This document shows positions 4,719 to 27,592 of a stretch of DNA of 27,592 nucleotides, in pieces; position 1 is the stretch's first letter; each line of letters begins with the position of its first letter. The notes under the pieces are model-generated. The model made no database searches. It saw nothing but the letters and a program-made list of their open reading frames with translations, and was not told the origin of the DNA. This DNA comes from a virus. Taxonomy: Duplodnaviria; Heunggongvirae; Uroviricota; Caudoviricetes. A program made the position numbers and the translations under genes. Location: IMG/VR virus record IMGVR_UViG_2522572164_000008. One strand, written 5' to 3'.

Positions 4719-4964
4719 ATGTATAAGCGCCCAATGAAAATATTCAAAAAAGGAAAAATAATGATTGGCTATATTCAAGAAACACAATTATTTCAGATGA
4801 TCCTGTCTGATGCAAAAAACTATGCAGAGTTAATTCGGCTGGCAAAAGAAACAGAAGACTACGAAGCATTAGAGCGTTACCGTGATGAAGTGCTGACGCT
4901 CAAGACACCTTTTAACATCGTATTGAATATGATTAATGATGCATTACAAGGAGAATACGCATAA
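4719..4964 (+). CDS. Hypothetical small protein (start ambiguous, alternative ATG at 4761)
   Basis: Open frame with AGGAAA upstream of the internal ATG at 4761; stop overlaps the start of the next gene. Confidence 0.4.
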   Translation: MYKRPMKIFKKGKIMIGYIQETQLFQMILSDAKNYAELIRLAKETEDYEALERYRDEVLTLKTPFNIVLNMINDALQGEYA

Positions 4965-5263
4965 TGGAAGAAGATATTAGCAATGCAATGGAACAACTTT
5001 TAGATCTGACTATCTCACTACAAACAAGAATAAATCAAGCCTATTCAGATTTATGCGATTACACGCTCTCTCAATGCGTTATTAGCTTAATGAAGGTGAA
5101 TGTAAGCCTTGACGATTTTATCTCTCTGGTGAGCGTATCAGAGGACGATGCAAAACAGTGTAATCAAATCATCACAGACATCGCCACCACGTTAAAGGTT
5201 GCAAGTGAAGAGATTCAGCAATTAGTAGATGATTTAGCAAAAAGTGCTATTTTCTCTAAATGA
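4964..5263 (+). CDS. Hypothetical protein (99 aa)
   Basis: RBS AAGGAGAA upstream; ATG overlaps the previous stop (TAATGG), suggesting translational coupling. Confidence 0.5.
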   Translation: MEEDISNAMEQLLDLTISLQTRINQAYSDLCDYTLSQCVISLMKVNVSLDDFISLVSVSEDDAKQCNQIITDIATTLKVASEEIQQLVDDLAKSAIFSK

Positions 5264-6253
5264 TAATGAAAATTATTTGCATTTATAATGATTTTGTTAT
5301 ATAATAATTTAGGGGTAGATAAAAAGATTTTAGTTGGTGTTAATCCTTCTACTGTCATAAATCCCTGCATATGGAAGGTGATAGCCTCAAAGGTTGAGTG
5401 GCATTAACCTCTAACAAATATTACCTTCCATCTCTCAAGAAGTTTTAGAATAATCATAACTCCCTCTTTGATTGTTGATTGTTGATTGTTTCTACGTTGT
5501 GTTGATGAATGTTGTTAGGCATTGTGCTTAATTTTGATAAAAGCGGGTAGGTGTTATCTCCTTGCCCTTCCCGCTCTTATTTTTCATCTATGCTTATCCT
5601 AAAGCTCCTTATTTTGTCAGAAAACATTAAAGAGCCTTACACTGATAGTTATATTTTATAACTATTTACTAACATCATTAAACTATTATTTAATGACAGA
5701 AGTTAGTAACAGAATAATCTATTAAGTTGTTGTCAAAAACAATCATCTGCATAGCGTTAGCCGCAAGCAGAGAGAGTTTAGCTAAGAATGGTGCAATAAA
5801 CTTTGGAAATATTGATAGCAAAACGGGTTTTATAGAATGCGGATCTATAAGCTTTGGTTGTAAAAACGATTTTCTGAAACGGTAGATTACTGTTGGTGTA
5901 GTTAATCATTATTAAAAATTTAATCCGTGAGTAGATTGGAATAGTGATTCCTTAAAATCTGACTGGTGCATCCACACCATGAAAGATAGCGGTTGGCCAC
6001 CGCGCCCCGAATAGATATTCCTGATTGATTCCGCATGTTTTCCTAAGAGCATGTTTTCAGGAGTATCTATTCACCCTTTAAGCATATCATCAAGTATATT
6101 TAAAAAGTGTATTTGCTGATATGTTTAATCCTCTTATAGTTTAACTTATCAATTATGTAATTGCCCGCACGTTAAAGCCCCTTTGCTGGTCAGAATTAAC
6201 CTCTTACGGCATTGGGGCTTTTTATTTGTCTGGCACTAACAGGAACATTATTT

Positions 6254-6451
6254 ATGAAACAAGAAATGATTATCAGCAAAGACGGGGAAACGATGATTGT
6301 TAGTGATGAAAACCTCATTAAGGTTGCCGCACTGTTGGGAGTTACTCCCGAAAGTCTTCGTTCTACCACTGCTCAATTATTTAAATCGGCTGATGCGGTT
6401 AGTCTTGCTGATGCCCTTAAATCTAAAATTAAACAACTGAAAGGAAAATAA
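6254..6451 (+). CDS. Hypothetical small protein (about 65 aa)
   Basis: ATG at 6254 with AGGAA 8 nt upstream; the ORF-track start at 6212 lies inside a terminator-like hairpin and is unlikely. Confidence 0.45.
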   Translation: MKQEMIISKDGETMIVSDENLIKVAALLGVTPESLRSTTAQLFKSADAVSLADALKSKIKQLKGK

Positions 6452-10915: not shown

Positions 10916-11820
10916 CTATAGCGTTGTTTTACGCCTTAAATTTGATTTTTTATTGATTGATAAGCCTTTCTCTATTTCAGGGTAGCGTAAAAGCTCAATA
11001 TATTTTTTAAGCTCTATTGGAGAAGCTGCATTTTTGCTATATGTGCGGAATGTTTCTGTATTGCCGCGTGTATGGCCCAGGAGAAGGGCGATCCTGTCTT
11101 CTGGAATTTGATTTCGATCAAGAAGCTGTGCTACTCCGTGTCTCAGAGAATGAAACACTTTCCTTTCTGTTCCCTTTTCCCCTAAAGCCTTTCGTTTAGC
11201 TCTTGTAAATCGTTGTGTATGCCACGTAGAGCGTTTACCGTCAGCACGTTCTGTAATGCTGGCGTGATAGAACAAAAAGCCATTGTGAGGCTTTTCACGC
11301 AGCGACAACACCAACGGAGTGATAAGGTTATGCACAGGCACAACACGTGCCGCAGCTTTCGTCTTTCCCTGTGTGATTTCAAAACACAGCACACCTTCGA
11401 TCTCTTTCACATCGTCTATTGTGAGACTTGCTATCTCATTGATCCGCATACCTGTATATAAACCGATAAGACACAAAGCCGTCATTTCTTTGTTTTCTGC
11501 TGAATTACCGGAAAATACTTGCAACACCTGCAATAGCTCTTTGTTAGAAAATGCCTCGTAGCTCTCTCTACTTTGTGCCACATCAAGCCTATGCCCTCGC
11601 CAGGGGGAGAGCGCCCTTTCTGGCGCATCGTGGTAACGTGATGAAGCTAATTCCCATAGCTGGGCCATTGGACTGATATAATTTGCAATTGATTGTTGTG
11701 AAAGAGTTTTTTGCATGTGTTCAATCCAGCCTGTAACAGTGGTGCGGCTTACATCTTGCAATGCAATATCAGGCTTTTTACGGTAGGAGAGAAACATCTC
11801 TACCGCTTTTCTTGCCTTAG
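10916..11820 (-). pseudogene. Tyrosine integrase, C-terminal catalytic fragment (separated from its N-terminus by IS5)
   Basis: Contains H-x-x-R (FHSLRHG), LLGH and a C-terminal Tyr (RTYSK) typical of tyrosine recombinases. The first 23 codons of the ORF-track protein are read from inside IS5. Confidence 0.8.
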
Positions 11821-13015
<1,195 letters not shown>

Positions 13016-13479
13016 TTAGCTAAAGTGGCTGGCTTCTTCTTCGTGCTGTTAATTGTCAGGTAGATTTCAAGAATTTTAAGCAATGACGGACACGAAGACG
13101 CTGTATCTTGCACTCTGGTAGCTGTTTTGGCGTATTTAGCCTTACTGCGTAACAGTTCCAGCGTGTTTTCTATTGTGCTGTTTACAGGGGCAACACTCTC
13201 CCGTAAGCAATGGTATTCATCTGCAATCTGATCACGCTTTCTACGTGCAACACGAAGATTACTTGTGTGTAGACTTCTGACAAACGTCCTTTTTCCTTCA
13301 AAAAAGGGCTGCATATACACAGGCAGCGTGATCCTTAAATAGTAGTTACCGTAAGAATCACAGATTAAGTATTGGTTAGGCTTGTATCTCATAAAATCTC
13401 CGGCTAAAGTGTCGGAGCGTTTGTAATGTGAAAATTGATTGTGACGCATAGAAAATGATGATTTTTCTATAAGATTCAA
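13016..13479 (-). pseudogene. Tyrosine integrase, N-terminal fragment (continues at 11820-10916 across IS5)
   Basis: N-terminal integrase-like segment (YYLRITLP...GKRTFVRSL). The ORF-track protein then reads through into IS5 (about 36 aa of IS-derived sequence). Frame arithmetic shows the two fragments are in frame once IS5 and one TTAG copy are removed. Confidence 0.8.
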
Positions 13480-13719: not shown

Positions 13720-14934
13720 GTGAAACTCAATGCCCGTCAAATAGACACTGCCAAGCCAAAAGAGAAGGCTTACAAGCTGGCTGATGGTGGTGGTCTGTAT
13801 CTCTTGGTAAAACCTAGTGGAGGAAAATATTGGCGCTTCAAGTATCGTGTAGCTGGTAAAGAGAAGCTGTTAGCACTAGGTGTGTATCCTGAAGTTACTT
13901 TGGCTGATGCTCGTGCAAAACGTGAAGAAGCTAAAAGGGGTATCGCTGGGGGTATCGATCCGATGGAAGCGAAACGAGAGGAAAAGATTGCCCGGGAAAC
14001 GCAGTTAAACAACACCTTCAAAGATATTGCCCTTGAGTGGCACAGCAGCAAATTAAAAAAATGGTCTGCTGGTTATGCTTCAGACATCCTCGAAGCCTTC
14101 AACAAAGATGTGTTCCCTTACATTGGCAAAAAACCAATCGCCGAAATCAAACCACTTGAACTGCTGAATGTGCTGCGGCGCATCGAGGGGCGCGGTGCTA
14201 CCGAAAAAGCCAAAAAAGTGAGGCAGCGATGCGGGGAAGTTTTCCGCTATGCAATTGTCACTGGACGTGCTGAGTATAACCCTGCACCGGATCTCACCAG
14301 CGCGATGCAAGGTCATGAATCTAATCATTATCCTTTCCTCACAGCCAAAGAATTACCTGATTTTTTCAAGGCATTGTCCAGTTACTCAGGAAGTGCATTG
14401 GTTGTTATGGCGGCTCGTCTACTGATTATCACCGGTTTGCGGACTGGCGAACTGCGCGGTGCATTATGGGATGAAATCGATCTCAACAAGGCTATCTGGG
14501 AGATACCTGCTTCACGGATGAAAATGCGTCGCCCTCATGTGGTGCCTTTGTCTAAGCAGGCTCTTTCGCTTATTGGGCAGATTAAAGAATTAACTGGCAA
14601 TTATCCGCTTATGTTTCCCGGCCGTAATGATCCAAGGAAAACAATGAGCGAGGCTAGCATAAACCAAGTATTTAAACGCATCGGCTATAACGGAAAGGTT
14701 ACTGGTCATGGATTCCGGCACACCATGAGCACCATTTTGCATGAGCAGGGCTATAACACCGCGTGGATAGAGACGCAGCTCGCACACGTCGATAAAAACT
14801 CAATTCGTGGCACATACAACCATGCGCAATATCTGGATGGACGGCGGGAAATGCTTCAGTGGTACGCCGATTATATGGATTCGCTCGAGCATGGCGGAAA
14901 TGTGGTGCATGGTGAGTTCGGAAAATGCGGGTGA
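13720..14934 (+). CDS. Tyrosine integrase, P4/CP4-57-like family (404 aa)
   Basis: GTG start with GGAGG 9 nt upstream; N-terminus ARQIDTAKPKEKAYKLADGGGLYLLVKPSGGKYWRFKYR typical of P4-type integrases; catalytic R...HGFRHT...Y region near the C-terminus. Confidence 0.9.
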   Translation: MKLNARQIDTAKPKEKAYKLADGGGLYLLVKPSGGKYWRFKYRVAGKEKLLALGVYPEVTLADARAKREEAKRGIAGGIDPMEAKREEKIARETQLNNTFKDIALEWHSSKLKKWSAGYASDILEAFNKDVFPYIGKKPIAEIKPLELLNVLRRIEGRGATEKAKKVRQRCGEVFRYAIVTGRAEYNPAPDLTSAMQGHESNHYPFLTAKELPDFFKALSSYSGSALVVMAARLLIITGLRTGELRGALWDEIDLNKAIWEIPASRMKMRRPHVVPLSKQALSLIGQIKELTGNYPLMFPGRNDPRKTMSEASINQVFKRIGYNGKVTGHGFRHTMSTILHEQGYNTAWIETQLAHVDKNSIRGTYNHAQYLDGRREMLQWYADYMDSLEHGGNVVHGEFGKCG

Positions 14935-16054: not shown

Positions 16055-16252
16055 ATGTCAAATACGCTTATTCGTTTAACAGAAGTTCAGCGTAGAACTG
16101 GATATAGCAAGGCATGGATTTATCGCCTTATGGGGCAAGGTAAATTTCCTGCATCAGTTAAAATTGGCTCGCGAGCTATTGCTTTCGTTGAGAGTGAAAT
16201 TGACGAGTGGATTAATCAGCGTATTGCTGAATCACGCGGAACAGCTACCTGA
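16055..16252 (+). CDS. alpA: AlpA-family phage transcriptional regulator/excisionase-like HTH protein (65 aa)
   Basis: Sequence LIRLTEVQRRTGYSKAWIYRLMGQGKFPASVKIGSRAIAFVESEIDEWI matches the AlpA family pattern; RBS GAGGTAAATAT-ATG. Confidence 0.85.
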   Translation: MSNTLIRLTEVQRRTGYSKAWIYRLMGQGKFPASVKIGSRAIAFVESEIDEWINQRIAESRGTAT

Positions 16253-16330: not shown

Positions 16331-17131
16331 ATGAAACTGCGAAAAACGCCCGTACAGGGGCAGGGCTTCGTTCGGCCTGAAAACCAGAATCTGCAAAATT
16401 TCGGCGAAATTATCCCGGTTATTTCCGGCGTTATTGGCGGGCGTGAAACCAATATTGTTAGCGGCAGAGCGTTGCATAAGGCGTTAGGTGTAGGTCGCGT
16501 TTTCCGTTCGTGGATCAAGGGGCGCATTGAAGAATACGGCTTCACGGAAGGCGTGGATTATGAGGTTGTTGAATATTTGAGCCGACCCGATCCGGTGAGC
16601 GCAAAATCTCGCCAGCAAACAGCTCTTGAGTACATCATTACCGTGAACATGGCGAAAGAACTGGCGATGGTCGAACGCACCGAACAGGGGCGCGCCGTTC
16701 GTCAGTACTTCATCAAATGCGAGGAAGAGCTACACAAGGTTGCGCCTGTACGTTCCGCAGCGTTACGCCGGGAACTGAAAGCCCGTATCACAGTTGCCAG
16801 CTACTTTAAGCCAATGTGTGCCGCGCTGGAGGACTACCGGGCTGAACTGGGTAAAAACACTCTACAGCACCACTACACCACGGAAGCCAATATGCTGGCG
16901 CGTATCGTGCTGGGTGGCATGACTGCAAAACAGTGGGCGCAGGTGAACGGCATCACAGGCGAACCACGCGACCACATGAGCACGTTGCAGCTTGAGCACC
17001 TTTCTTACCTTGAGCAGAGCAATATCACGCTGATTGAGTTAGGCCAGGACTACCACCAGCGGAAGGCTGAATTAATTCGTCTTTCGCAGCGTTGGTTAGC
17101 CCGTCGCATGGAGGAAAACAGCCATGTGTAA
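16331..17131 (+). CDS. Phage antirepressor-like protein (266 aa)
   Basis: RBS AGGAG; N-terminal region resembles prophage antirepressor proteins as recalled. Family assignment tentative. Confidence 0.6.
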   Translation: MKLRKTPVQGQGFVRPENQNLQNFGEIIPVISGVIGGRETNIVSGRALHKALGVGRVFRSWIKGRIEEYGFTEGVDYEVVEYLSRPDPVSAKSRQQTALEYIITVNMAKELAMVERTEQGRAVRQYFIKCEEELHKVAPVRSAALRRELKARITVASYFKPMCAALEDYRAELGKNTLQHHYTTEANMLARIVLGGMTAKQWAQVNGITGEPRDHMSTLQLEHLSYLEQSNITLIELGQDYHQRKAELIRLSQRWLARRMEENSHV

Positions 17132-17590
17132 CGCTCTGACCGTTACAAAAAGAGAAAGCGCCCCGTTGCCGGAGCGCCTTTGTGAACGAATAGCCTACTG
17201 CGCCATATTGCTTACTGTCTACGAGGCAGATTATAGCGTTGTGGTCGCACAGAGTGAAGGCGCTGATCACCGTTACTACAGCACGCCAGAAATGCAGAAT
17301 ATTTTGCTGCAAAATGCCGTTGGCCACGCTGTCCGGAAAGCAAAAAATTTTGCTGGTGGCGCGACTGATGCGATTTTGTCAGGTCGCCAGGTGCTGATCA
17401 ATCTGATGTCTGATTTCGTTCTGGATAAAACAAAGGCGACCGCAGAGAGCCGCCAGTGGAAAAGCTACATACTTGAACGCATCACCAACAATGCCACATT
17501 TGCGGCTGGTGGGCAATGTGTCAGCTTTGCACCAATGACTCTAGGTTTAACTGAGGGTCATTATGGTGAATATGCTGGCTTGCTGGTGGG
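17124..17590 (+). other. Coding-like 5' part of a 1.57-kb stop-free frame; status unresolved, possibly a decayed or fused gene
   Basis: ATG at 17124 overlaps the upstream stop and has GGAGGA 9 nt upstream, but the frame has no stop until 18692 and runs antisense through a plausible minus-strand gene and a promoter region. The end coordinate is arbitrary. Confidence 0.3.
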
Positions 17591-17848
17591 CTATTCCTGC
17601 TCTTTAACATCGCCATGCCGCGATGTTTTCCAGGTATGCGACCCCATTTTTGTGCGCCTGTACTCTTTAAGGAATTTCTCAAGGATAAACGCACAGGGCG
17701 CGAATCTGTCTGACTCATGCTCGTACGCTATCTTTCTGCGCTGTCTTTTCCGTGCCGGTGATGGTGTATTGGTTGATTCTTTGTTGGTCATGGCGCTGCC
17801 CTGTAAAACGATGCACCGTAGTTCCTCACACCACGGCGCTGGTGATGG

Positions 17849-18154
17849 TTACTCCTGTTCTTTGGCCTTGCGCCGCTGGAGTTCTTCACGCGCGACGGTG
17901 ACGAGTTGCCCGATCTCCTCGGCTGCTTTGACACCGATTTTTTCCACCTGCGCCAGTGCATCGAGCGAAGAAACCAGGGGATTTTCTCCGCTTCCTTCTG
18001 CCTGGCGGCGGGCGATTTCACCGCGAACGGCTGTAATCACGAAAGCGGCTATTGTTTCCCCTTCCGTTTTCGAATTTTCCATTTCCTCGATTACATCATG
18101 GGGGAAGCGGATATTTTTCATTTGCGATCTGCTGTTGATGTTTCCTGTTGCCAT
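17849..18154 (-). CDS. Putative ribbon-helix-helix-type regulator with C-terminal coiled coil (101 aa)
   Basis: MKNIRFPHDVIEEMEN strand-helix pattern; divergent from the downstream plus-strand operon across a palindrome-rich region. No clear SD. Confidence 0.6.
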   Translation of the reverse strand: MATGNINSRSQMKNIRFPHDVIEEMENSKTEGETIAAFVITAVRGEIARRQAEGSGENPLVSSLDALAQVEKIGVKAAEEIGQLVTVAREELQRRKAKEQE

Positions 18155-18176
18155 CAGAATGTCCGGTTATTTTGAG

Positions 18177-18279
18177 GTGTGTACACATTACACCAAAAGG
18201 TGTGTTGATAAAACACTTGACACTGTAGCACACTTAAATCTAATCTGTATATACACTAATGATTGTGGTGTATATACAG
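18177..18279. promoter_or_regulatory. Divergent promoter/operator region with three palindromes
   Basis: Perfect 12-bp inverted repeat CTGTATATACAC (18245-18256) / GTGTATATACAG (18268-18279) with 11-bp spacer; TGTGTACACA (18177-18186); ACACCAAAAGGTGT (18190-18203); TTGACA at 18217-18222 with a TAATCT -10 candidate 18 bp downstream. Confidence 0.55.
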
Positions 18280-18346
18280 CAACGCCCCGCAGTGGTGGCA
18301 CACATGCAGGGCGTCTAACCAAACCGTTAAACGAGGTAACGATTAT

Positions 18347-18692
18347 GGCTGGAACACAGCATACCCAAACTCACCCTAAATTTATATACACCTTCCTGGC
18401 GGTGCACCGTGATTGCATAGCTGACGGTAAAAACACTGTACACGTAGCCGCTGATACGCTGGTTGATGCCTGCGAGATGCTCAATGACATGGGCTATATC
18501 TCGGCAACATGGAAAGGGCGCGAAGAAAACACGCTGTTTATTCAGAAATGCGAGAACAATTTTATCTGGCGTTTTATCGCCCTGAGCACAGCACAACCGC
18601 GCGTAATTCACATCGAGGCCACCAGCGAACAGGAAGCGCGTCAGCAATCTCCTGATGGCTGCGTGATGGTATTCGCTGCCCGTATTCGCTAG
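18347..18692 (+). CDS. Hypothetical protein (115 aa)
   Basis: ATG at 18347 with GAGGTAACGATT upstream; this is the 3' part of the long stop-free frame and is probably the real gene. Confidence 0.5.
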
Positions 18693-19265: not shown

Positions 19266-19556
19266 ATGAAAAAGAAAAATTCTGGCTTTACTGCCAGCGG
19301 CCTCTCTCGGTCTGCAATTCGCTCTGGCGATATTTACCGCGACACCAGACGTGGGGGACGAGTGGTTATTCGTCACGTTACGCCAGGCAATATCACCTAC
19401 CGCCGTGAGGCTTACGAATATGACTGCGTAATGCCGCGCCGTCAGTTTGAGCGTGATTTTATTCTGGTGGAAAACAAACAATTGGCGGTGGCAAGACGTG
19501 CAGCCTCGAATATTAAAAAAATCCGGGCAATGTTGGTTGCGGGAGGTAAGAAGTGA
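19266..19556 (+). CDS. Hypothetical small basic protein (96 aa), possibly of a conserved island-associated family
   Basis: Motif GDIYRDTRRGGRVVIRHV...YEYDCVMPRRQFERDF resembles small proteins recalled from P4-integrase islands; stop overlaps the start of the next gene. Confidence 0.5.
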   Translation: MKKKNSGFTASGLSRSAIRSGDIYRDTRRGGRVVIRHVTPGNITYRREAYEYDCVMPRRQFERDFILVENKQLAVARRAASNIKKIRAMLVAGGKK

Positions 19557-21685
19557 AAAACGCACCGAATTTAAAATATCAGCCAAAGGATAAATTCACC
19601 GAGGTAATCATTTTTGCCGGGACGGATGCTTACGCCCATGCTCAACACTGGATTGAAAGCGAAGGACGAAAACACGGCGATAACGTGCCACCTGTTTACC
19701 TGGGGCCAACGCAACTGGCAGATCTGGCTAATATCCGCATTATCGACGATGAGCGCCGCTTTGCGCGTGTTTATATCGCGGGGGAGATAGAGCCAATCCA
19801 GATCAATGCTATCGCTGAAAAGCTGGCGCTGGCTGGCGTACAGGATGCGAAATTATACAAAGGCATCACCGACCGGGAGCCGGAGAACTGGCGCGACTAC
19901 CTGCAACGGATCCGCGAACAGGCAGAGCGCGGGGAAACCATTCCTGAAGGAATCGGAATAGCTGGTGGATCACCCGGTAAAACAGACCCCATGAAACCGC
20001 ATATTACCGAAAAAGACGGGGCGCTCTGGTATATCGAGCCAATCCCCAACACCAGGGCAGAGGAGATGAATTATAAAGAAACCTGGCTGAGTGACCGGAT
20101 GCGCACGGCAGGTATTGGTAACGACGGAAGGGAAGCGTATCTGATCATTGAAATGATCCCGGAAGGGACACAAAAAATTATTTACGAAGCGATGCCGCGC
20201 AATGAAATCGGTATGCCCGCAGGATGGGCGCGATTACGTGGGCGGGGAGTTGCAATCACTACCAGTGCCCATTTACTGAACAAACTGGCGGAATACCTGC
20301 AACGTCATGGAGATCGCACGGTGTGGGAGGTCACATCAACAGCAGGTTGGCATTGTGGAGCCTATGTTATGCCTGATGGCGAGGTGATTGGTGTGCCTGA
20401 CCGTCCCGTAGCATTCTGCGGCGGATCTGCCGCCATCAAAGGCTATATTGTCAGGGGCACGGTGCATGAATGGCGAAATAATGTTGCTTCTCTGATGCGT
20501 GGCAATCACTCAATGATGCTTGGGGTGCTGGTCGGGCTGGCAGCCCCGCTAAATTCCCTTGTGGGTGGTAGTTGTTTTGGTATTCATCTTTTCGCGCAGT
20601 CGTCAGCGGGGAAAACCACGACTGTGGAGGCCGCCACCAGCCTTTATGGCGACCCTGAAATGCTTAAACTCTCGTGGGATGCCACCCGGCACGGGCTGAC
20701 AGTGGAAGCAGCTGCACGTAATGACGGTTTTATCCCTATTGATGAAATTGGTCAGGGAGGAAGGGTTAATGACATTGCGCAATCCGCCTACAGCCTGTTT
20801 AACGGTGTGGGCAGGATTCAGGGGCGCAAGGACGGCGGTAATCGTGCGGTAATGCGCTGGAAAATAGCGGCACTAAGCACCGGAGAAGAAGATTTTGAAA
20901 CCTTCCTGTTAAAAGGGGGAATTGCCCCAAAGGCAGGGCAACTGGTGCGACTGCTAAGCATTCCCTTTACCGATACAACGGTGTTTAACGGTTATGACGA
21001 TGGTGATCAACATGCCAGGGCCATAAAGCGACTTTCATCAAATTATTGTGGCGCTGCGGGACGTGAGTGGGTGCGCTGGTTATCCGCTCACAAGGAGCTG
21101 GCTATCAACACCACTTCAGATAAAGAAAATGCCTGGCTGGGAAATCTGCCTGAAAATGCCTCGTCACAGGTAAGGCGAGTGGCATCGCGATTCGCCATGC
21201 TGGATGCAGCCGGAGAGCTTGCCACCGCAATTACTGGCTGGACAGCTGAAGAATGCCGGGAAGCAACGCAACGGGCTTTTGATGACTGGCTACAGGATTT
21301 CGGGCTGGAAAACCGGGAAAAATATCAGGTCATCAGTCGCGCCCGTGACTTTATTCAGCGCCATGCCCTGAGTCGTTTTCAGCCTTATACCTACGGGAAA
21401 AGCAATGGGGATATGGATAACCACTATGCATCCCGTATAAGCAATCTTGCAGGCTATCTTGTCAGCGGTAAGCGTGAGGATGGAAAACCCGAATATCACA
21501 TTATCCCGTCAGTGTTTGATAGCGAAATTTTATGCGGTATATCCAGGAACTTTGGGTGTCAGGCGCTGGAAGAAGCCGGAATGCTGGTTTGTGCAGAACC
21601 TGGTCGCTGGACATCGAAAACAGTGAAGATTAACGGAACACAGCAGCGATTTATCGTGCTGATTGATCAGGCAGAAGACGAATAG
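19553..21685 (+). CDS. Replication protein, primase/helicase-like P-loop NTPase (710 aa)
   Basis: GTG start with GGAGGT upstream; Walker A GxxxxGKT (FAQSSAGKTTTVE); large N-terminal domain; followed directly by an iteron array. Confidence 0.75.
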   Translation: MKNAPNLKYQPKDKFTEVIIFAGTDAYAHAQHWIESEGRKHGDNVPPVYLGPTQLADLANIRIIDDERRFARVYIAGEIEPIQINAIAEKLALAGVQDAKLYKGITDREPENWRDYLQRIREQAERGETIPEGIGIAGGSPGKTDPMKPHITEKDGALWYIEPIPNTRAEEMNYKETWLSDRMRTAGIGNDGREAYLIIEMIPEGTQKIIYEAMPRNEIGMPAGWARLRGRGVAITTSAHLLNKLAEYLQRHGDRTVWEVTSTAGWHCGAYVMPDGEVIGVPDRPVAFCGGSAAIKGYIVRGTVHEWRNNVASLMRGNHSMMLGVLVGLAAPLNSLVGGSCFGIHLFAQSSAGKTTTVEAATSLYGDPEMLKLSWDATRHGLTVEAAARNDGFIPIDEIGQGGRVNDIAQSAYSLFNGVGRIQGRKDGGNRAVMRWKIAALSTGEEDFETFLLKGGIAPKAGQLVRLLSIPFTDTTVFNGYDDGDQHARAIKRLSSNYCGAAGREWVRWLSAHKELAINTTSDKENAWLGNLPENASSQVRRVASRFAMLDAAGELATAITGWTAEECREATQRAFDDWLQDFGLENREKYQVISRARDFIQRHALSRFQPYTYGKSNGDMDNHYASRISNLAGYLVSGKREDGKPEYHIIPSVFDSEILCGISRNFGCQALEEAGMLVCAEPGRWTSKTVKINGTQQRFIVLIDQAEDE

Positions 21686-21717
21686 CACAACCTACGCTCG
21701 CAGAGGGTCAAAAATCG

Positions 21718-21990
21718 CGGGATATGCGGGATATCGGGATATGGAAATATATTGCATAAATATCAGTTATTTATGTGTTGTTGTCGTATCCCGCTGTATC
21801 CCGCCGTATCCCGGTATTTAGGTTTACGAGTGGTTGTAAAACAAACAAAATAACCGTATCCCGGAATGTATCCCGCAATATCTTATTGATGCATAAGCAA
21901 AAAAAAACTTACCGGGATATGGCGGGATATGAAAAATCACATAACGCTATGAAATAAATGGGTTTTTTTTGTTTATATCCCGATATCCCG
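21718..21990. repeat. Iteron array: 12 copies of the octamer CGGGATAT (or its complement) in alternating blocks, with A/T runs; candidate replication origin
   Basis: Forward copies at 21718, 21727, 21735, 21913, 21923; reverse copies at 21787, 21797, 21807, 21857, 21868, 21975, 21983; A- and T-runs at 21899-21907, 21963-21970 and 22005-22013. Confidence 0.7.
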
Positions 21991-22143
21991 GTAAAAAATG
22001 TTTTTTTACGCCTTATAGAGTACAGAAAAAAAGGTTGTTCAAATTTTGTATTACGATTGACTACTGTCAGCCATCCCACCCGGAAAAGGCATAAAAGCTG
22101 ACAGGTAACTGACAATGAGACTGTTTTATTTTTACGTGCCGAT

Positions 22144-22701
22144 ATGACGGCAACAATGATGGGGCAGAGCATGACAAAACTGACCATTAACAGAAAACCG
22201 AAAGGTATTTACGGCACGCCGCAGAAAACGACGCAGGCGGCACAGAAGCAGGATAAAACCACATCGGCACATAAAGTGATGCCCGGTAACCAGAAAGCGC
22301 AGCAGAAGCCCACAGGGGCGACACCGTGGCGGCATATGACCAAACGCCAGCGCAAAAACCGCAGGCGCGTTAACCGTCTCACTGAGTTGTGGCCTGAATT
22401 ATTCAGCCGGGAAGCACCGAAGCCACTTAAGGTGGGGATATTCGACGACCTGATGCAGGATATCGCCGTCAGGGGGCTGGCATTCGGTCCAGGGGCATTA
22501 CGTGCGACGCTGGCATCTTATGCGCAGTGTCCGCGCTATTACCGCGCCTTAATGGCTGGTGGGGTGCGCTATGACCTGAAAGGCCAGCCGTGCGGCGAGG
22601 TGACACCACAGAAACAGAACGAGGCAGAAATGCGGCTGATGGCGCTGAATGAGAAGCGCAAACGCCAGCGCCGGGCAGCCAGGGAGAAAACAGGCGCATG
22701 A
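22144..22701 (+). CDS. FinO/ProQ-domain RNA-binding protein-like (185 aa)
   Basis: Core PLKVGIFDDL...LRATLASYAQCPRYYRALMAGGVRYDLKGQPCGEV follows the ProQ/FinO domain pattern as recalled; basic N-terminal tail. Start codon uncertain. Confidence 0.65.
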   Translation: MTATMMGQSMTKLTINRKPKGIYGTPQKTTQAAQKQDKTTSAHKVMPGNQKAQQKPTGATPWRHMTKRQRKNRRRVNRLTELWPELFSREAPKPLKVGIFDDLMQDIAVRGLAFGPGALRATLASYAQCPRYYRALMAGGVRYDLKGQPCGEVTPQKQNEAEMRLMALNEKRKRQRRAAREKTGA

Positions 22702-23119: not shown

Positions 23120-23923
23120 ATGAATAAAACTTTAATTGCAACATTAGTCGGTATAGTAATGTTAACCGGATGTGGGCCAGAAGAGTTAACTCCAGAACAG
23201 AAACAGGAAGTAGCTGCTCTTAAAGCTGAACTGTCGCAAACGGAAGGTGAAATATCAGCAGCTAAGGAAGTTGACCAGCAGTTTTCTGGTGGGTTGATAA
23301 AAAATCTGACAACAGCAAGACTGGAAATATTAGGAACTAATAAAGCGCTTTTGGAACAGCGTATTAATGCTATTGAATCAGGTGCCAAAATTGATGTTGT
23401 TGTATCTGGAGTAAAACCTGATCCTGAGCTTGCGGCTTCAATTAAAACTGAAATTGACAGCTTAGATGCAAAAATCAACGAAGCCAAAGCTGATGCTCGT
23501 CAGTATAGTGGTGGTCTGATAAAGGTACTAAAATTATCTACTGTTGCCACTGAAGAGCAGACCATGGCAATGTTGCAGCAAAAGTACCTCACAGCCAAGT
23601 ATGGCCTCGCTGAAGTTAAGCTGGCATCAGTACAAGCTAATGACGCAAAAAACAGTACTGAAACGGAAGTAACAGCCAAAAATTCCCAAGAGCAACTTCC
23701 TTTACTCCCGCCAGCGGATGGTCCGTTTGGCTTAGAAGCCGGTCTTACACAGAAAAACATCGAAGATATGATCGGTGCTAAGCTCAAGCCACTACCAGAC
23801 AGTGTGAATCTGTATACTTCTGATAAATTACCGAAGCAAAACGCAGATTTTGAAATGTATGGTTTGCTGATCTCCCCGAAAGCTGGTTTATGTCAAATAC
23901 GGGCTTTAGGAAAAAAATATTGA
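23120..23923 (+). CDS. Lipoprotein (267 aa) with internal sequence repeats
   Basis: Signal peptide plus lipobox (MLTGC); internal repeat QQFSGGLIKNL / RQYSGGLIKVL; AT-rich relative to neighbours; RBS AGGGAT. Confidence 0.7.
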   Translation: MNKTLIATLVGIVMLTGCGPEELTPEQKQEVAALKAELSQTEGEISAAKEVDQQFSGGLIKNLTTARLEILGTNKALLEQRINAIESGAKIDVVVSGVKPDPELAASIKTEIDSLDAKINEAKADARQYSGGLIKVLKLSTVATEEQTMAMLQQKYLTAKYGLAEVKLASVQANDAKNSTETEVTAKNSQEQLPLLPPADGPFGLEAGLTQKNIEDMIGAKLKPLPDSVNLYTSDKLPKQNADFEMYGLLISPKAGLCQIRALGKKY

Positions 23924-23939
23924 TACTGATAGCTATGGA

Positions 23940-24263
23940 TTGGCTCTTAAATCCAAGTTTGAAGAATTGAGTAATTCTTTAAGTTCTCTGTATGGAAAGG
24001 CTGATACTACAGACTTTTTGCTGGCTGGTTCAATTTGGAAAGATCCTCAGGACTGGATGAGGGGGCTAAACAAAAAAGAACGCTTCTTATCTGCCACATG
24101 GAAGGGAACAAAAGAAATACCATTAAAAAACAATATTGATACTATATCTATTGAGGCCAGAGCGAACAATTCCACTCAGGGATATGTCTATCTGCAGTAC
24201 TCATTTACAAATGACGAAATTTGTCAGGCAGAAATTGAAGGGGCGAAAAAAAGTTCCCTTTAA
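23940..24263 (+). CDS. Hypothetical protein (about 107 aa, start uncertain)
   Basis: Open frame right after the lipoprotein gene; the first codon in the track is a non-ATG start; followed by a clear terminator. Confidence 0.35.
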   Translation: MALKSKFEELSNSLSSLYGKADTTDFLLAGSIWKDPQDWMRGLNKKERFLSATWKGTKEIPLKNNIDTISIEARANNSTQGYVYLQYSFTNDEICQAEIEGAKKSSL

Positions 24264-26596: not shown

Positions 26597-27592
26597 ATGG
26601 ATACGAGAGTGGCGACGATAATCAAAAATATAGCAATCAAAGGTCTTTTTAAACGGAAGGACATTGATTGGAGTTTAAAAGATGTGAATGTTTTAGTGGG
26701 TAAAAATGGCTCAGGTAAGAGCACGATAATTCAAAGTGTTTTTGCCCTCTTAAAACAAGAATTAAATGAAAGTTTAAGTAATGCTGCGTTGGCTCAAATA
26801 ACATTGGCCAATGGAGGCACAATTACTCACAAAGTTAATTTTCGCGAAATTGACTCTGTCCAGCTTCTAAACCTACTTAATAACCTTAAGAAAAACAGTA
26901 TTAAAGGTAAATCAAAGGGTAAGGAAATAAAGGAGTTAAATGAACTTATTGAGTTGCTTGAATCGAAAAAAGAAGACACTGAAATTAAAGAGTTCGGGAT
27001 GGGAACTGTTAGCGTAAGTGATAATATTAAAAACACTAAGCGAATAAATGTTGAGTTAATATCAACTATCAATATGAGTGCCAATTCCATCTATGAATTC
27101 AAAAAAAGTGATGGTGAGCGCACCACAATTCTTGATATGGAAATTGCTGGTGAATTAGAAAGGTTAAAGAATACTTTCAAAGTAAGTGAGTCTAAAGGTA
27201 TTCTCATAAAGGATAAGTTGGAATCAGCTATAAATAATTTATTTTCTGAATGTAACAAAGTTGTTTCTTTTAGTAATGGTAACATTTCTATTAAGATGAG
27301 TGATTCTGGTGAAGATATTAGGTATAATCTTCTTTCATCAGGTGAACGTCAGTTGTTATATATTCTGATTAAAACAGCTAATACTTCATTGGATGAATCT
27401 GTCTTGTTGATGGATGAGCCAGAAATATCCTTGCACCTTACGTGGCAAGAAAGATTAATAAGCACCATCAAATCAATTAACGATAATTGTCAGTTAATTA
27501 TTGTTACTCATAGTCCTGCAATATTAATGAAAGGCTGGATGGATTCTTTCGTAGATATAAAAAATATTTCAAAGGAATCTTCTCATGACTGA
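26597..27592 (+). CDS. ABC-type/SMC-like ATPase (331 aa), defence-associated type
   Basis: Walker A GKNGSGKST, ABC signature LSSGERQ, Walker B LLMDEPE, H-loop IVTHSP; very AT-rich versus island backbone; TATAAT at 26573-26578 upstream. Confidence 0.85.
   Translation: MDTRVATIIKNIAIKGLFKRKDIDWSLKDVNVLVGKNGSGKSTIIQSVFALLKQELNESLSNAALAQITLANGGTITHKVNFREIDSVQLLNLLNNLKKNSIKGKSKGKEIKELNELIELLESKKEDTEIKEFGMGTVSVSDNIKNTKRINVELISTINMSANSIYEFKKSDGERTTILDMEIAGELERLKNTFKVSESKGILIKDKLESAINNLFSECNKVVSFSNGNISIKMSDSGEDIRYNLLSSGERQLLYILIKTANTSLDESVLLMDEPEISLHLTWQERLISTIKSINDNCQLIIVTHSPAILMKGWMDSFVDIKNISKESSHD
27585..27592 (+). CDS. Start of a translationally coupled downstream gene (truncated by the window end)
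   Basis: ATG at 27585 overlaps the ATPase stop (ATGACTGA) with AAGGAA 8 nt upstream; only 2.7 codons visible. Confidence 0.3.

Follow-up and report, generated by a model that had tools for sequence, protein, structure and literature searches.

The stretch of DNA analysed here (the window; 27,592 nt, Caudoviricetes, IMG/VR virus record IMGVR_UViG_2522572164_000008) contains a replication gene, rep, directly followed by an array of short repeats that resembles an origin of replication. The gene (19553..21685, plus strand) codes for Rep, a 710-aa initiator-helicase of the DUF927/MCM-like AAA+ class, and its start codon overlaps by 4 nt a gene for a DUF4222 protein (19266..19556, plus strand; Pfam DUF4222, E 2.6e-19). 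An earlier note, drawn up from the letters alone, had described a 710-aa Walker A protein next to 12 copies of an octamer as a probable self-contained replicon. The protein stands as described: the open reading frame (ORF) is open from its GTG start, and its sequence reveals, in the ATPase core, a segment (20594..20746, plus strand) that runs from the Walker A motif AQSSAGKT (aa 348-355, nt 20594-20617, plus strand) to the Walker B residues DE (aa 397-398, nt 20741-20746, plus strand). Residues G353, K354, T355, T356, D397 and E398 are unchanged throughout 67 homologues.

The array starts 32 nt 3′ of the Rep stop codon, within a 458-nt gap ahead of the next gene. The motif CGGGATAY occurs 13 times in the window and 12 of these copies fall inside 273 bp (21718-21990), whereas dinucleotide-preserving shuffles contained 0.81 copies per window on average and at most 3. 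The count of 12 in the earlier note was right, but the copies do not share a single sequence: seven read CGGGATAT and the five located in the two middle reverse blocks read CGGGATAC, so that the repeat unit becomes (G/C/T)CGGGATAY, with T as the final Y in 7 copies and C in 5. The iterons form five blocks whose orientations (three forward, three reverse, two reverse, two forward, two reverse) are exactly those first claimed. Block 1 (21718..21742, plus strand) contains three CGGGATAT copies starting at 21718, 21727 and 21735, spaced 9 and 8 nt, while block 2 (21786..21813, minus strand) contains three CGGGATAC copies at 21786, 21796 and 21806, spaced 10 and 10 nt. Block 3 (21856..21875, minus strand) consists of two CGGGATAC copies 12 nt apart (21856, 21868), block 4 (21913..21930, plus strand) of two CGGGATAT copies 10 nt apart (21913, 21923), and block 5 (21975..21990, minus strand) of two CGGGATAT copies 8 nt apart (21975, 21983), giving a within-block spacing of 8-12 nt overall. 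Elsewhere in the window the seven-base core CGGGATA was found only as 4 isolated copies, and there is no second cluster of it.

The A+T-rich stretches reported amid the blocks were also recovered, as four inter-block spacers of 37-44 bp with 69-76% A+T. Spacer 1 (21743..21785; 74% A+T) lies between the convergent blocks 1 and 2, and spacer 4 (21931..21974; 75% A+T, with a T8 run) between the convergent blocks 4 and 5. Duplex stability over 30-mers reaches its lowest values in the region at these two sites, at 21740-21779 (dG -30.8 kcal/mol) and 21950-21979 (dG -31.8 kcal/mol), compared to a window mean of -39.1 kcal/mol (standard deviation 3.8) and a 99th percentile of -30.7 kcal/mol. We consider spacer 1, the least stable duplex of the region, as the primary candidate melting site and spacer 4 as the second.

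Two elements that are not iterons border the array, both on the plus strand. The left flank, GCAGAGGGTCAAAAA/GCAGAGGGTnAAAAA (21700..21714), lies directly ahead of block 1 and is kept in the corresponding origins of Serratia, Klebsiella and Salmonella; the right flank, TTTTTACGCCTTATAGAG/TTTTTACGCCTATATAGAG (22003..22020), lies just past block 5 and is near-identical in the same three. The right flank may act as a promoter element or delimit the origin; for the pair of flanks, a role as origin borders, as a promoter or as a host-factor site is conceivable. Scanning 21500-22300 for promoters and terminators turned up nothing beyond shuffled expectation, and no RNA family reached the Rfam gathering score within the origin. 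Two ORFs called mechanically inside the origin (21775-21957 on the plus strand and 21909-22187 on the minus strand) were rejected as coding sequences, the spacers being 53% conserved with insertions and deletions and neither ORF being present in RefSeq.

Repeats that go with the replicase

A genome-wide scan returned 80 loci coding for DUF927 relatives (35-69% identity) in Enterobacterales, Pasteurellaceae and one Pseudomonas, of which 75 were usable. An 8-mer repeated at least four times is present within 550 nt 3′ of the stop codon at 68 of the 75 loci, compared to 0/75 when the final 550 nt of the coding sequence are scanned and 1/74 for the next 550 nt further downstream (P = 2e-28, Mann-Whitney test). 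Repeats with a GGGATA core accompany 30 of the 31 relatives that are at least 55% identical to Rep but only 3 of the 44 more distant ones (P = 2e-16, Fisher's test), and the other Rep clades use about ten other motifs, including TGAACCAAC, TGAGACAAC, GTGGGTTA and AGTGTGTCA.

The five-block layout is retained in a Serratia locus (L087) and a Salmonella locus (L088), whose Reps are 76-81% identical to the one in the window, as well as in a Klebsiella locus (L090) coding for a longer, Toprim-type form of the protein. Across the Serratia, Klebsiella and Salmonella origins, identity to the window reaches 91% in iteron columns versus 53% in spacers (P = 2e-31, Fisher's test), thereby indicating purifying selection on the iterons. 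An Escherichia coli O91 island (L089), the Rep of which is 73% identical, has the same layout, and all of its copies read CGGATA, with one G fewer, apparently the outcome of a concerted change of every copy. In Xenorhabdus khoisanae (L007), an otherwise typical YGGGATAA origin contains a (CGTAA)n microsatellite of about 10 units at ~4950-5000, and this expansion directly adjoins an iteron block.

Only the first ~384 nt of rep recur, at 94-97% nucleotide identity, in some 180 further E. coli islands that are built alike. Downstream of this segment those islands code for unrelated replicases, each with its own array after the stop codon: a second DUF927 allele with TGAGACAAC iterons (L003), a P4-alpha-like member of the "DNA primase family" with ACTGTTCAC iterons (L004), a DUF5906 protein with GGTAGACAG iterons (L005) and a protein of the helicase RepA family with AAAGTGAGG iterons (L006). 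The AlpA-type protein WP_000072422.1 is identical in L005, L006 and the island of the window, yet their replicases and iterons differ, which shows that the repeats track the replicase and not the regulator. Since cassette variants, wide sample, close relatives and concerted change all agree, we take the iterons to be cis sites read by the adjacent Rep. The array of L004 (E. coli ETEC1716, 5770-6047, next to the P4-alpha-like replicase gene) is made of ACTGTTCAC/GTGAACAGT iterons, whose core is presumably similar to TGTTCACC, the octamer found in ori and crr of P4.

Fold of Rep and its N-terminal domain

The Pfam DUF927 domain spans aa 227-434 of Rep (139.6 bits compared to a cutoff of 22.6; E 2e-40). 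Searching the PDB with the Rep sequence returned only two relatives, both at E ~2e-6: 8tch, the Rep of the Staphylococcus aureus pathogenicity island (SaPI) SaPIbov1, and 5dgk, the Cch helicase of SCCmec, a staphylococcal chromosome cassette. An AlphaFold model of Rep built with the 67 homologues as input (predicted local distance difference test score, pLDDT, of 77) recovered the same two proteins as best Foldseek matches. Cch ranked first (E 4e-21; template modelling score, TM, of 0.66-0.68 on the target) and 8tch, described as an initiation-of-replication protein with helicase activity, second (E 2e-18), with alignments spanning about 570-600 columns; RavA, NrS-1, BrxL, MCM subunits and other AAA+ proteins came at lower ranks. 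The NCBIfam model Cch1 also matches Rep, far under its cutoff. Based on the PDB and Foldseek matches, Rep belongs to the MCM-like AAA+ helicase-initiator class of staphylococcal islands, the family of SaPI Rep and SCCmec Cch, and by analogy with these it would load itself onto DNA.

Behind the ATPase, the secondary structure of the AlphaFold model outlines a C-terminal alpha/beta domain (aa 609-704; 21377..21664, plus strand) that is predicted to be winged-helix-like and may serve as the iteron reader. Ten of the 30 residues that set the CGGATA-type Rep of L089 apart from three CGGGATA-type Reps fall within aa 616-696, and this contrast between two sequence types suggests that the C-terminal domain carries iteron specificity.

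The N-terminal domain (aa 1-126; 19553..19930, plus strand) has no Pfam match and a TOPRIM-like fold from which both the catalytic Glu and DxD are missing. Relatives of ~920 aa carry a Zn ribbon (PF08273) and a Toprim_3 domain (PF13362) ahead of DUF927, in the place occupied here by this 125-aa domain. Compared to IIAEGLATALS in these long forms, Rep reads IIFAGTDAYAHA, the Glu of the EG(Y/L)ATA motif being replaced by Ala, and the position of DxD is occupied by AGE. Both motifs are likewise missing from the N-terminus of the replicase of EcCICFT073, an E. coli phage-inducible chromosomal island (PICI). A profile-profile comparison of the N-terminal domain with the primase region of the long forms was not significant, and neither the zinc ribbon nor the catalytic TOPRIM of a DnaG/TOPRIM-type primase was found in Rep. 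The N-terminal domain is probably a degenerate TOPRIM-like domain and Rep probably not a primase.

Similarity between Rep and the replicases of other islands breaks at ~aa 126. Upstream of this point, ~125 aa are near invariant among islands with otherwise unrelated replicases (DUF927, DUF5906/primase family, RepA family), with 94-100% amino-acid identity within E. coli and 49% to EcCICFT073; the corresponding segment lies at 19553-19936 (aa 1-128) in the window, at 4001-4384 in L003-L006 and at 4742-5140 in L091. With just the N-terminal domain as query, most of the homologues retrieved were gene fragments. We tentatively raise the possibility that, behind a near-invariant, catalytically dead TOPRIM N-terminus, helicase-initiator cassettes have been swapped that are unrelated to one another, number at least four and bring their own iterons along (two DUF927/MCM-like alleles, the P4-alpha/DUF5906 superfamily 3 (SF3) type and the RepA-family type). 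If this were true, the "Pri" of the "Pri-Rep" of Gram-negative PICIs would be a conserved adaptor instead of a primase, which might dock host DnaG or single-stranded DNA-binding protein, the DUF4222 partner or a helper factor. The N-terminal gene segment would then be the recombination joint for exchange of Rep-ori cassettes, and such an exchange would change incompatibility or allow escape from interference. An apparently dead TOPRIM domain at this position calls the "primase" label into question and would mark the site of cassette exchange.

A probable replication module within an integrated island

Both strain 55989 and the outbreak genomes of E. coli O104:H4 match the region in the window at 100% identity, and all 236 E. 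coli matches are chromosomal, with 0 on a plasmid. In 55989 the island abuts a tRNA-Thr gene that marks its start. No tRNA was found in the window, where another integrative element intervenes between tRNA and island, as it also does in O104:H4. The annotated order in 55989 is P4-like integrase, a hypothetical protein, an AlpA-type helix-turn-helix protein, AntA, YlcI/YnfO (minus strand), an Icd-like protein and small ORFs, then DUF4222, the DUF927 protein, the gap, ProQ/FinO, PerC and lastly an AAA ATPase and DUF4435; nearly every annotated gene lies on the plus strand, which makes the order rightward and unidirectional. Domain scans of the window confirmed the tyrosine integrase gene (13720-14934; Arm-DNA-bind_3, Phage_int_M and Phage_integrase), the PerC gene and, downstream of the integrase gene, alpA (16055-16252; Pfam Phage_AlpA, E 2e-19). 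The Rfam int-alpA RNA motif RF02996 (14979-15046, plus strand; 44.2 bits, above the gathering score) lies between the two, just 3′ of the integrase gene. The DUF4222 gene is kept as the upstream neighbour of the replicase gene in L003-L006, L087, L088 and EcCICFT073.

In their 2018 paper (ISME J), Fillol-Salom et al. include among the supplementary tables the entry "Escherichia coli 55989 ... PICI 296286-311648, 15.3 kb" and label the O104:H4 copy "Chimera prophage & PICI" (PMC6092414). The 55989 entry (296286-311648) is the same island as that in the window; its 15.3 kb falls within the PICI range of ~10-18 kb, and the window ends inside it. No phage lysis or tail genes are present in the 55989 island annotation. 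Rep and the array are therefore not free-standing but form the replication module of an integrated phage satellite of ~15 kb, and we regard it as highly probable that this module is the Rep-ori of a Gram-negative PICI that E. coli O104:H4 and 55989 carry at tRNA-Thr.

Binding, melting, self-loading and their timing are drawn by homology from SaPI Rep and from the experimentally tested EcCICFT073 replicon, and on this basis the module would operate as follows. Upon induction and excision of the island, the rightward, AlpA-controlled operon would be transcribed and Rep made, the C-terminal domain of which would bind the 12 CGGGATAY iterons directly 3′ of its own gene. Blocks 1 and 2 form one convergent iteron set and blocks 4 and 5 another, either of them surrounding an A+T-rich stretch of ~43 bp, with block 3 as a central pair, and Rep hexamers assembled on the flanking iterons would melt one of the enclosed spacers, more likely spacer 1 than spacer 4. 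Rep would then load itself as the replicative helicase. Priming and synthesis would be left to a primase and polymerase of the host or of a helper phage, because no functional primase domain is recognisable in Rep, its N-terminal TOPRIM-like domain lacking both catalytic residues and a zinc ribbon; the product would be the substrate for packaging. The term "self-contained" used in the earlier note is thus apt only in part, since priming would come from outside the module.

Several observations weigh against assigning this locus to a functional PICI Rep-ori. No recognisable capsid or packaging gene and no cos-like site were found in the part of the island seen, one downstream gene is frameshifted in the window, and the island as a whole may be partly decayed even with an intact replicon. 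No DnaA box (scan of 21600-22200) or integration host factor consensus was found, Rep contains no recognisable primase domain, and the array has five blocks and two possible melting sites, unlike the simple arrangement of two sets flanking one A+T-rich region. Per-segment identity among Reps with the same versus different iterons does not single out any one domain as the specificity determinant. The Reps of Serratia oryzae (L034), Erwinia psidii (L037) and Pantoea rodasii (L057) are only 43-47% identical to Rep and yet are accompanied by TGGGATAAG iterons; no segment of theirs is more similar to the window Rep, and equally distant Reps use quite different motifs, so the code by which Rep recognises its iterons does not appear obvious from sequence. 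Finally, for this allele itself, binding, melting and autonomous replication are what we infer from its relatives.

The least improbable alternative is a relic: the module would descend from a PICI-type Rep-ori but have fallen silent in this strain, through a defect of the island or for want of a helper. The frameshifted downstream gene, the lack of any recognisable capsid, terminase or cos function in the part of the island seen, the tandem arrangement of the O104:H4 island with another element and its 2018 label as a chimera of prophage and PICI would all fit, but we hold it to be improbable, as the Rep ORF is intact and 98-100% identical in 25 complete genomes, 12/12 iterons are perfect and the layout is under purifying selection across genera.

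We consider it very unlikely that the repeats are operators through which AlpA, PerC or another island regulator controls the downstream ProQ/FinO-PerC genes, and not an origin. Such a role would suit the position of the array in the gap ahead of the next gene, the TATA-like core of the conserved TTTTTACGCCTTATAGAG element past block 5 and the failure to find a terminator-like site 3′ of the Rep stop codon in the intergenic region. However, islands with identical AlpA have differing repeats matched to their differing replicases, the repeat sequence goes with the Rep clade across the 75 loci, the long-form Toprim-DUF927 gene of L090 retains the array without ProQ or PerC downstream, and the promoter scan did no better than shuffled expectation. 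Least probable of all is a packaging signal (cos or pac) used to hijack a helper phage terminase: E. coli PICIs do have helper-type cos sites (PMC6092414) and such sites are often repeat-rich and A+T-rich, but the window contains no lambda/phi80 cosN-like sequence (the sole match with at most 2 mismatches, at 6321, is at chance level), the repeats co-vary with the replicase and not with any terminase, and a site directly 3′ of rep is the mapped position of the origin in SaPIs and EcCICFT073. Integrase arm sites were rejected on position, the array being ~8 kb from the island end.

Further features of the window lie on either side of this PICI-type Rep-ori. Upstream, an IS5-like transposase gene (11889-12869, plus strand; DDE_Tnp_1 and DUF772) within the region 10916-13479 interrupts the minus-strand tyrosine integrase gene of the tandem element, which is left as two ORFs (10916-11890 and 12907-13479); the insertion of ~1.2 kb is absent from complete O104:H4 genomes in RefSeq, and there the integrase gene is whole (1278 nt). 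Between alpA and the DUF4222 gene, a mechanically called 522-aa ORF (17124-18692, plus strand) has no Pfam match, and over the same interval RefSeq has two minus-strand genes, one hypothetical and one of the YlcI/YnfO family (17591-17791 and 17849-18154), together with an Icd-like gene on the plus strand. The interval 17501-18000 shows a strongly negative AT skew. The region 17124-18692 is the counterpart of the "Bro zone", a variable part of Gram-negative PICIs, and no C4 or isrK RNA reached the Rfam gathering threshold in it.

Downstream, a lipoprotein-like gene (23120-24263) that codes for one 380-aa protein in RefSeq runs for 267 aa here and then continues in another frame, through either a real mutation or an assembly error; coordinates beyond it are shifted by +1 relative to FDAARGOS_349. 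Near the end of the window, an AAA_15/AAA_21 ATPase gene (26597-27592), with AriA as the best PADLOC match (E 4e-43), runs past the window end in reference genomes and is followed by a DUF4435 gene in 55989 and O104:H4, which suggests that the island carries, at its 3′ end, a PARIS-type anti-phage system as cargo.

Comparison with known replication systems

The earlier note had recognised the classic layout of an iteron-dependent origin beside its initiator. Comparative data, structure prediction and the literature support such an origin, but of the SaPI/PICI type and not of the classic plasmid type. As in iteron plasmids (RepA, pi, TrfA; Rep_3), the initiator gene stands beside direct and inverted repeats and an A+T-rich unwinding region. 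The initiators of those plasmids are winged-helix dimers or monomers without an ATPase that depend on DnaA and on DnaB/DnaC loading, and their iterons measure 17-22 bp. A plasmid-type iteron replicon was rejected here: Rep is an AAA+ helicase initiator, its iterons measure 8 bp, a scan of 21600-22200 found no DnaA box, and not one of the 236 copies in E. coli is plasmid-borne.

The satellite P4 shares with this island a single multifunctional replicase that works with short octamer repeats, and the island family adds to the likeness with an integrase of P4 type, a regulator resembling AlpA/Vis and an Icd-like gene. P4 alpha combines a TOPRIM primase with an SF3 helicase and uses separate ori and crr clusters, whereas Rep has an MCM-like helicase, lacks the catalytic TOPRIM residues and is followed by one cluster. 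The P4 ori/crr design was rejected on that single repeat cluster and on the core of Rep, which is DUF927 and not SF3 (D5/DUF5906).

SCCmec Cch (5dgk) is the top structural match to Rep, but it is only ~18% identical and comes from a staphylococcal cassette chromosome. The resemblance to SaPIs extends from the protein to the origin. In SaPI Rep, a C-terminal winged-helix domain recognises short iterons, 6-12 of which lie immediately downstream of rep, on each side of a central A+T-rich region and in opposite orientations; binding and melting are ATP-independent, and the helicase loads itself, probably as two hexamers (PMC9371898). Rep shares with SaPI Rep/PriRep (SaPIbov1 Rep 8tch; Rep1, PriRep5) the protein family, the fold and a C-terminal domain behind the ATPase, and its origin likewise lies immediately downstream of rep, with short iterons of opposite orientation astride an A+T-rich region. 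It differs in a sequence identity of only about 13%, a Gram-negative host, iterons of 8 bp versus 5-6 bp, five blocks with two convergent pairs, a TOPRIM-like N-terminus and the lack of a separate pri gene.

Closer in sequence are the ~920-aa "Zn-ribbon + Toprim_3 + DUF927" primase-helicases of Enterobacterales prophages and islands (Klebsiella L090, Xenorhabdus), which are 59-77% identical over aa 145-710 and whose stop codons are likewise followed by YGGGATA iterons, with the block layout unchanged. Unlike Rep, these long forms possess a real primase N-terminus (PF08273, PF13362, EGLATA and DND motifs).

The locus thereby gives a Rep-ori annotation to a "DUF927 domain-containing protein" and to an unannotated intergenic region of the outbreak strain O104:H4. 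Together with its relatives it provides a catalogue of natural Rep/iteron specificities (YGGGATA, CGGATA, TGAACCAAC, TGAGACAAC, GTGGGTTA, AGTGTGTCA, TGGTACAAC, TAGGACCA and others) that could help to decipher how MCM-like self-loading helicases recognise DNA.

The island most like this one is EcCICFT073 (AE014075 1377749-1389210), with a P4-like integrase, AlpA, an Icd-like gene, DUF4222, replicase, origin and PerC in the same order and an origin right after the replicase stop codon, made of ~12 short iterons in two orientations around A+T-rich stretches. In Gram-negative PICIs the origin lies 3′ of pri-rep and consists of two iteron sets around an A+T-rich region, and a rep-ori clone of EcCICFT073 supported replication of a temperature-sensitive plasmid; deletion of rep resulted in no colonies at the restrictive temperature and deletion of ori in significantly fewer (PMC6092414). 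In EcCICFT073, the DUF4222 gene precedes the replicase gene and GGTAGAYA iterons begin 14 nt past the stop codon. The two replicases have only the N-terminal domain in common (49% identity over aa 1-134, E 9e-34), the EcCICFT073 protein being a 584-aa "DNA primase family" member with a P4-alpha/D5-like SF3 core. The design was already known from SaPIs and E. coli PICIs and the island had already been catalogued, so that little is added in principle; peculiar to this case are the DUF927 core, where the tested E. coli case has SF3, the CGGGATAY iteron, the five blocks and the apparently dead TOPRIM N-terminus.

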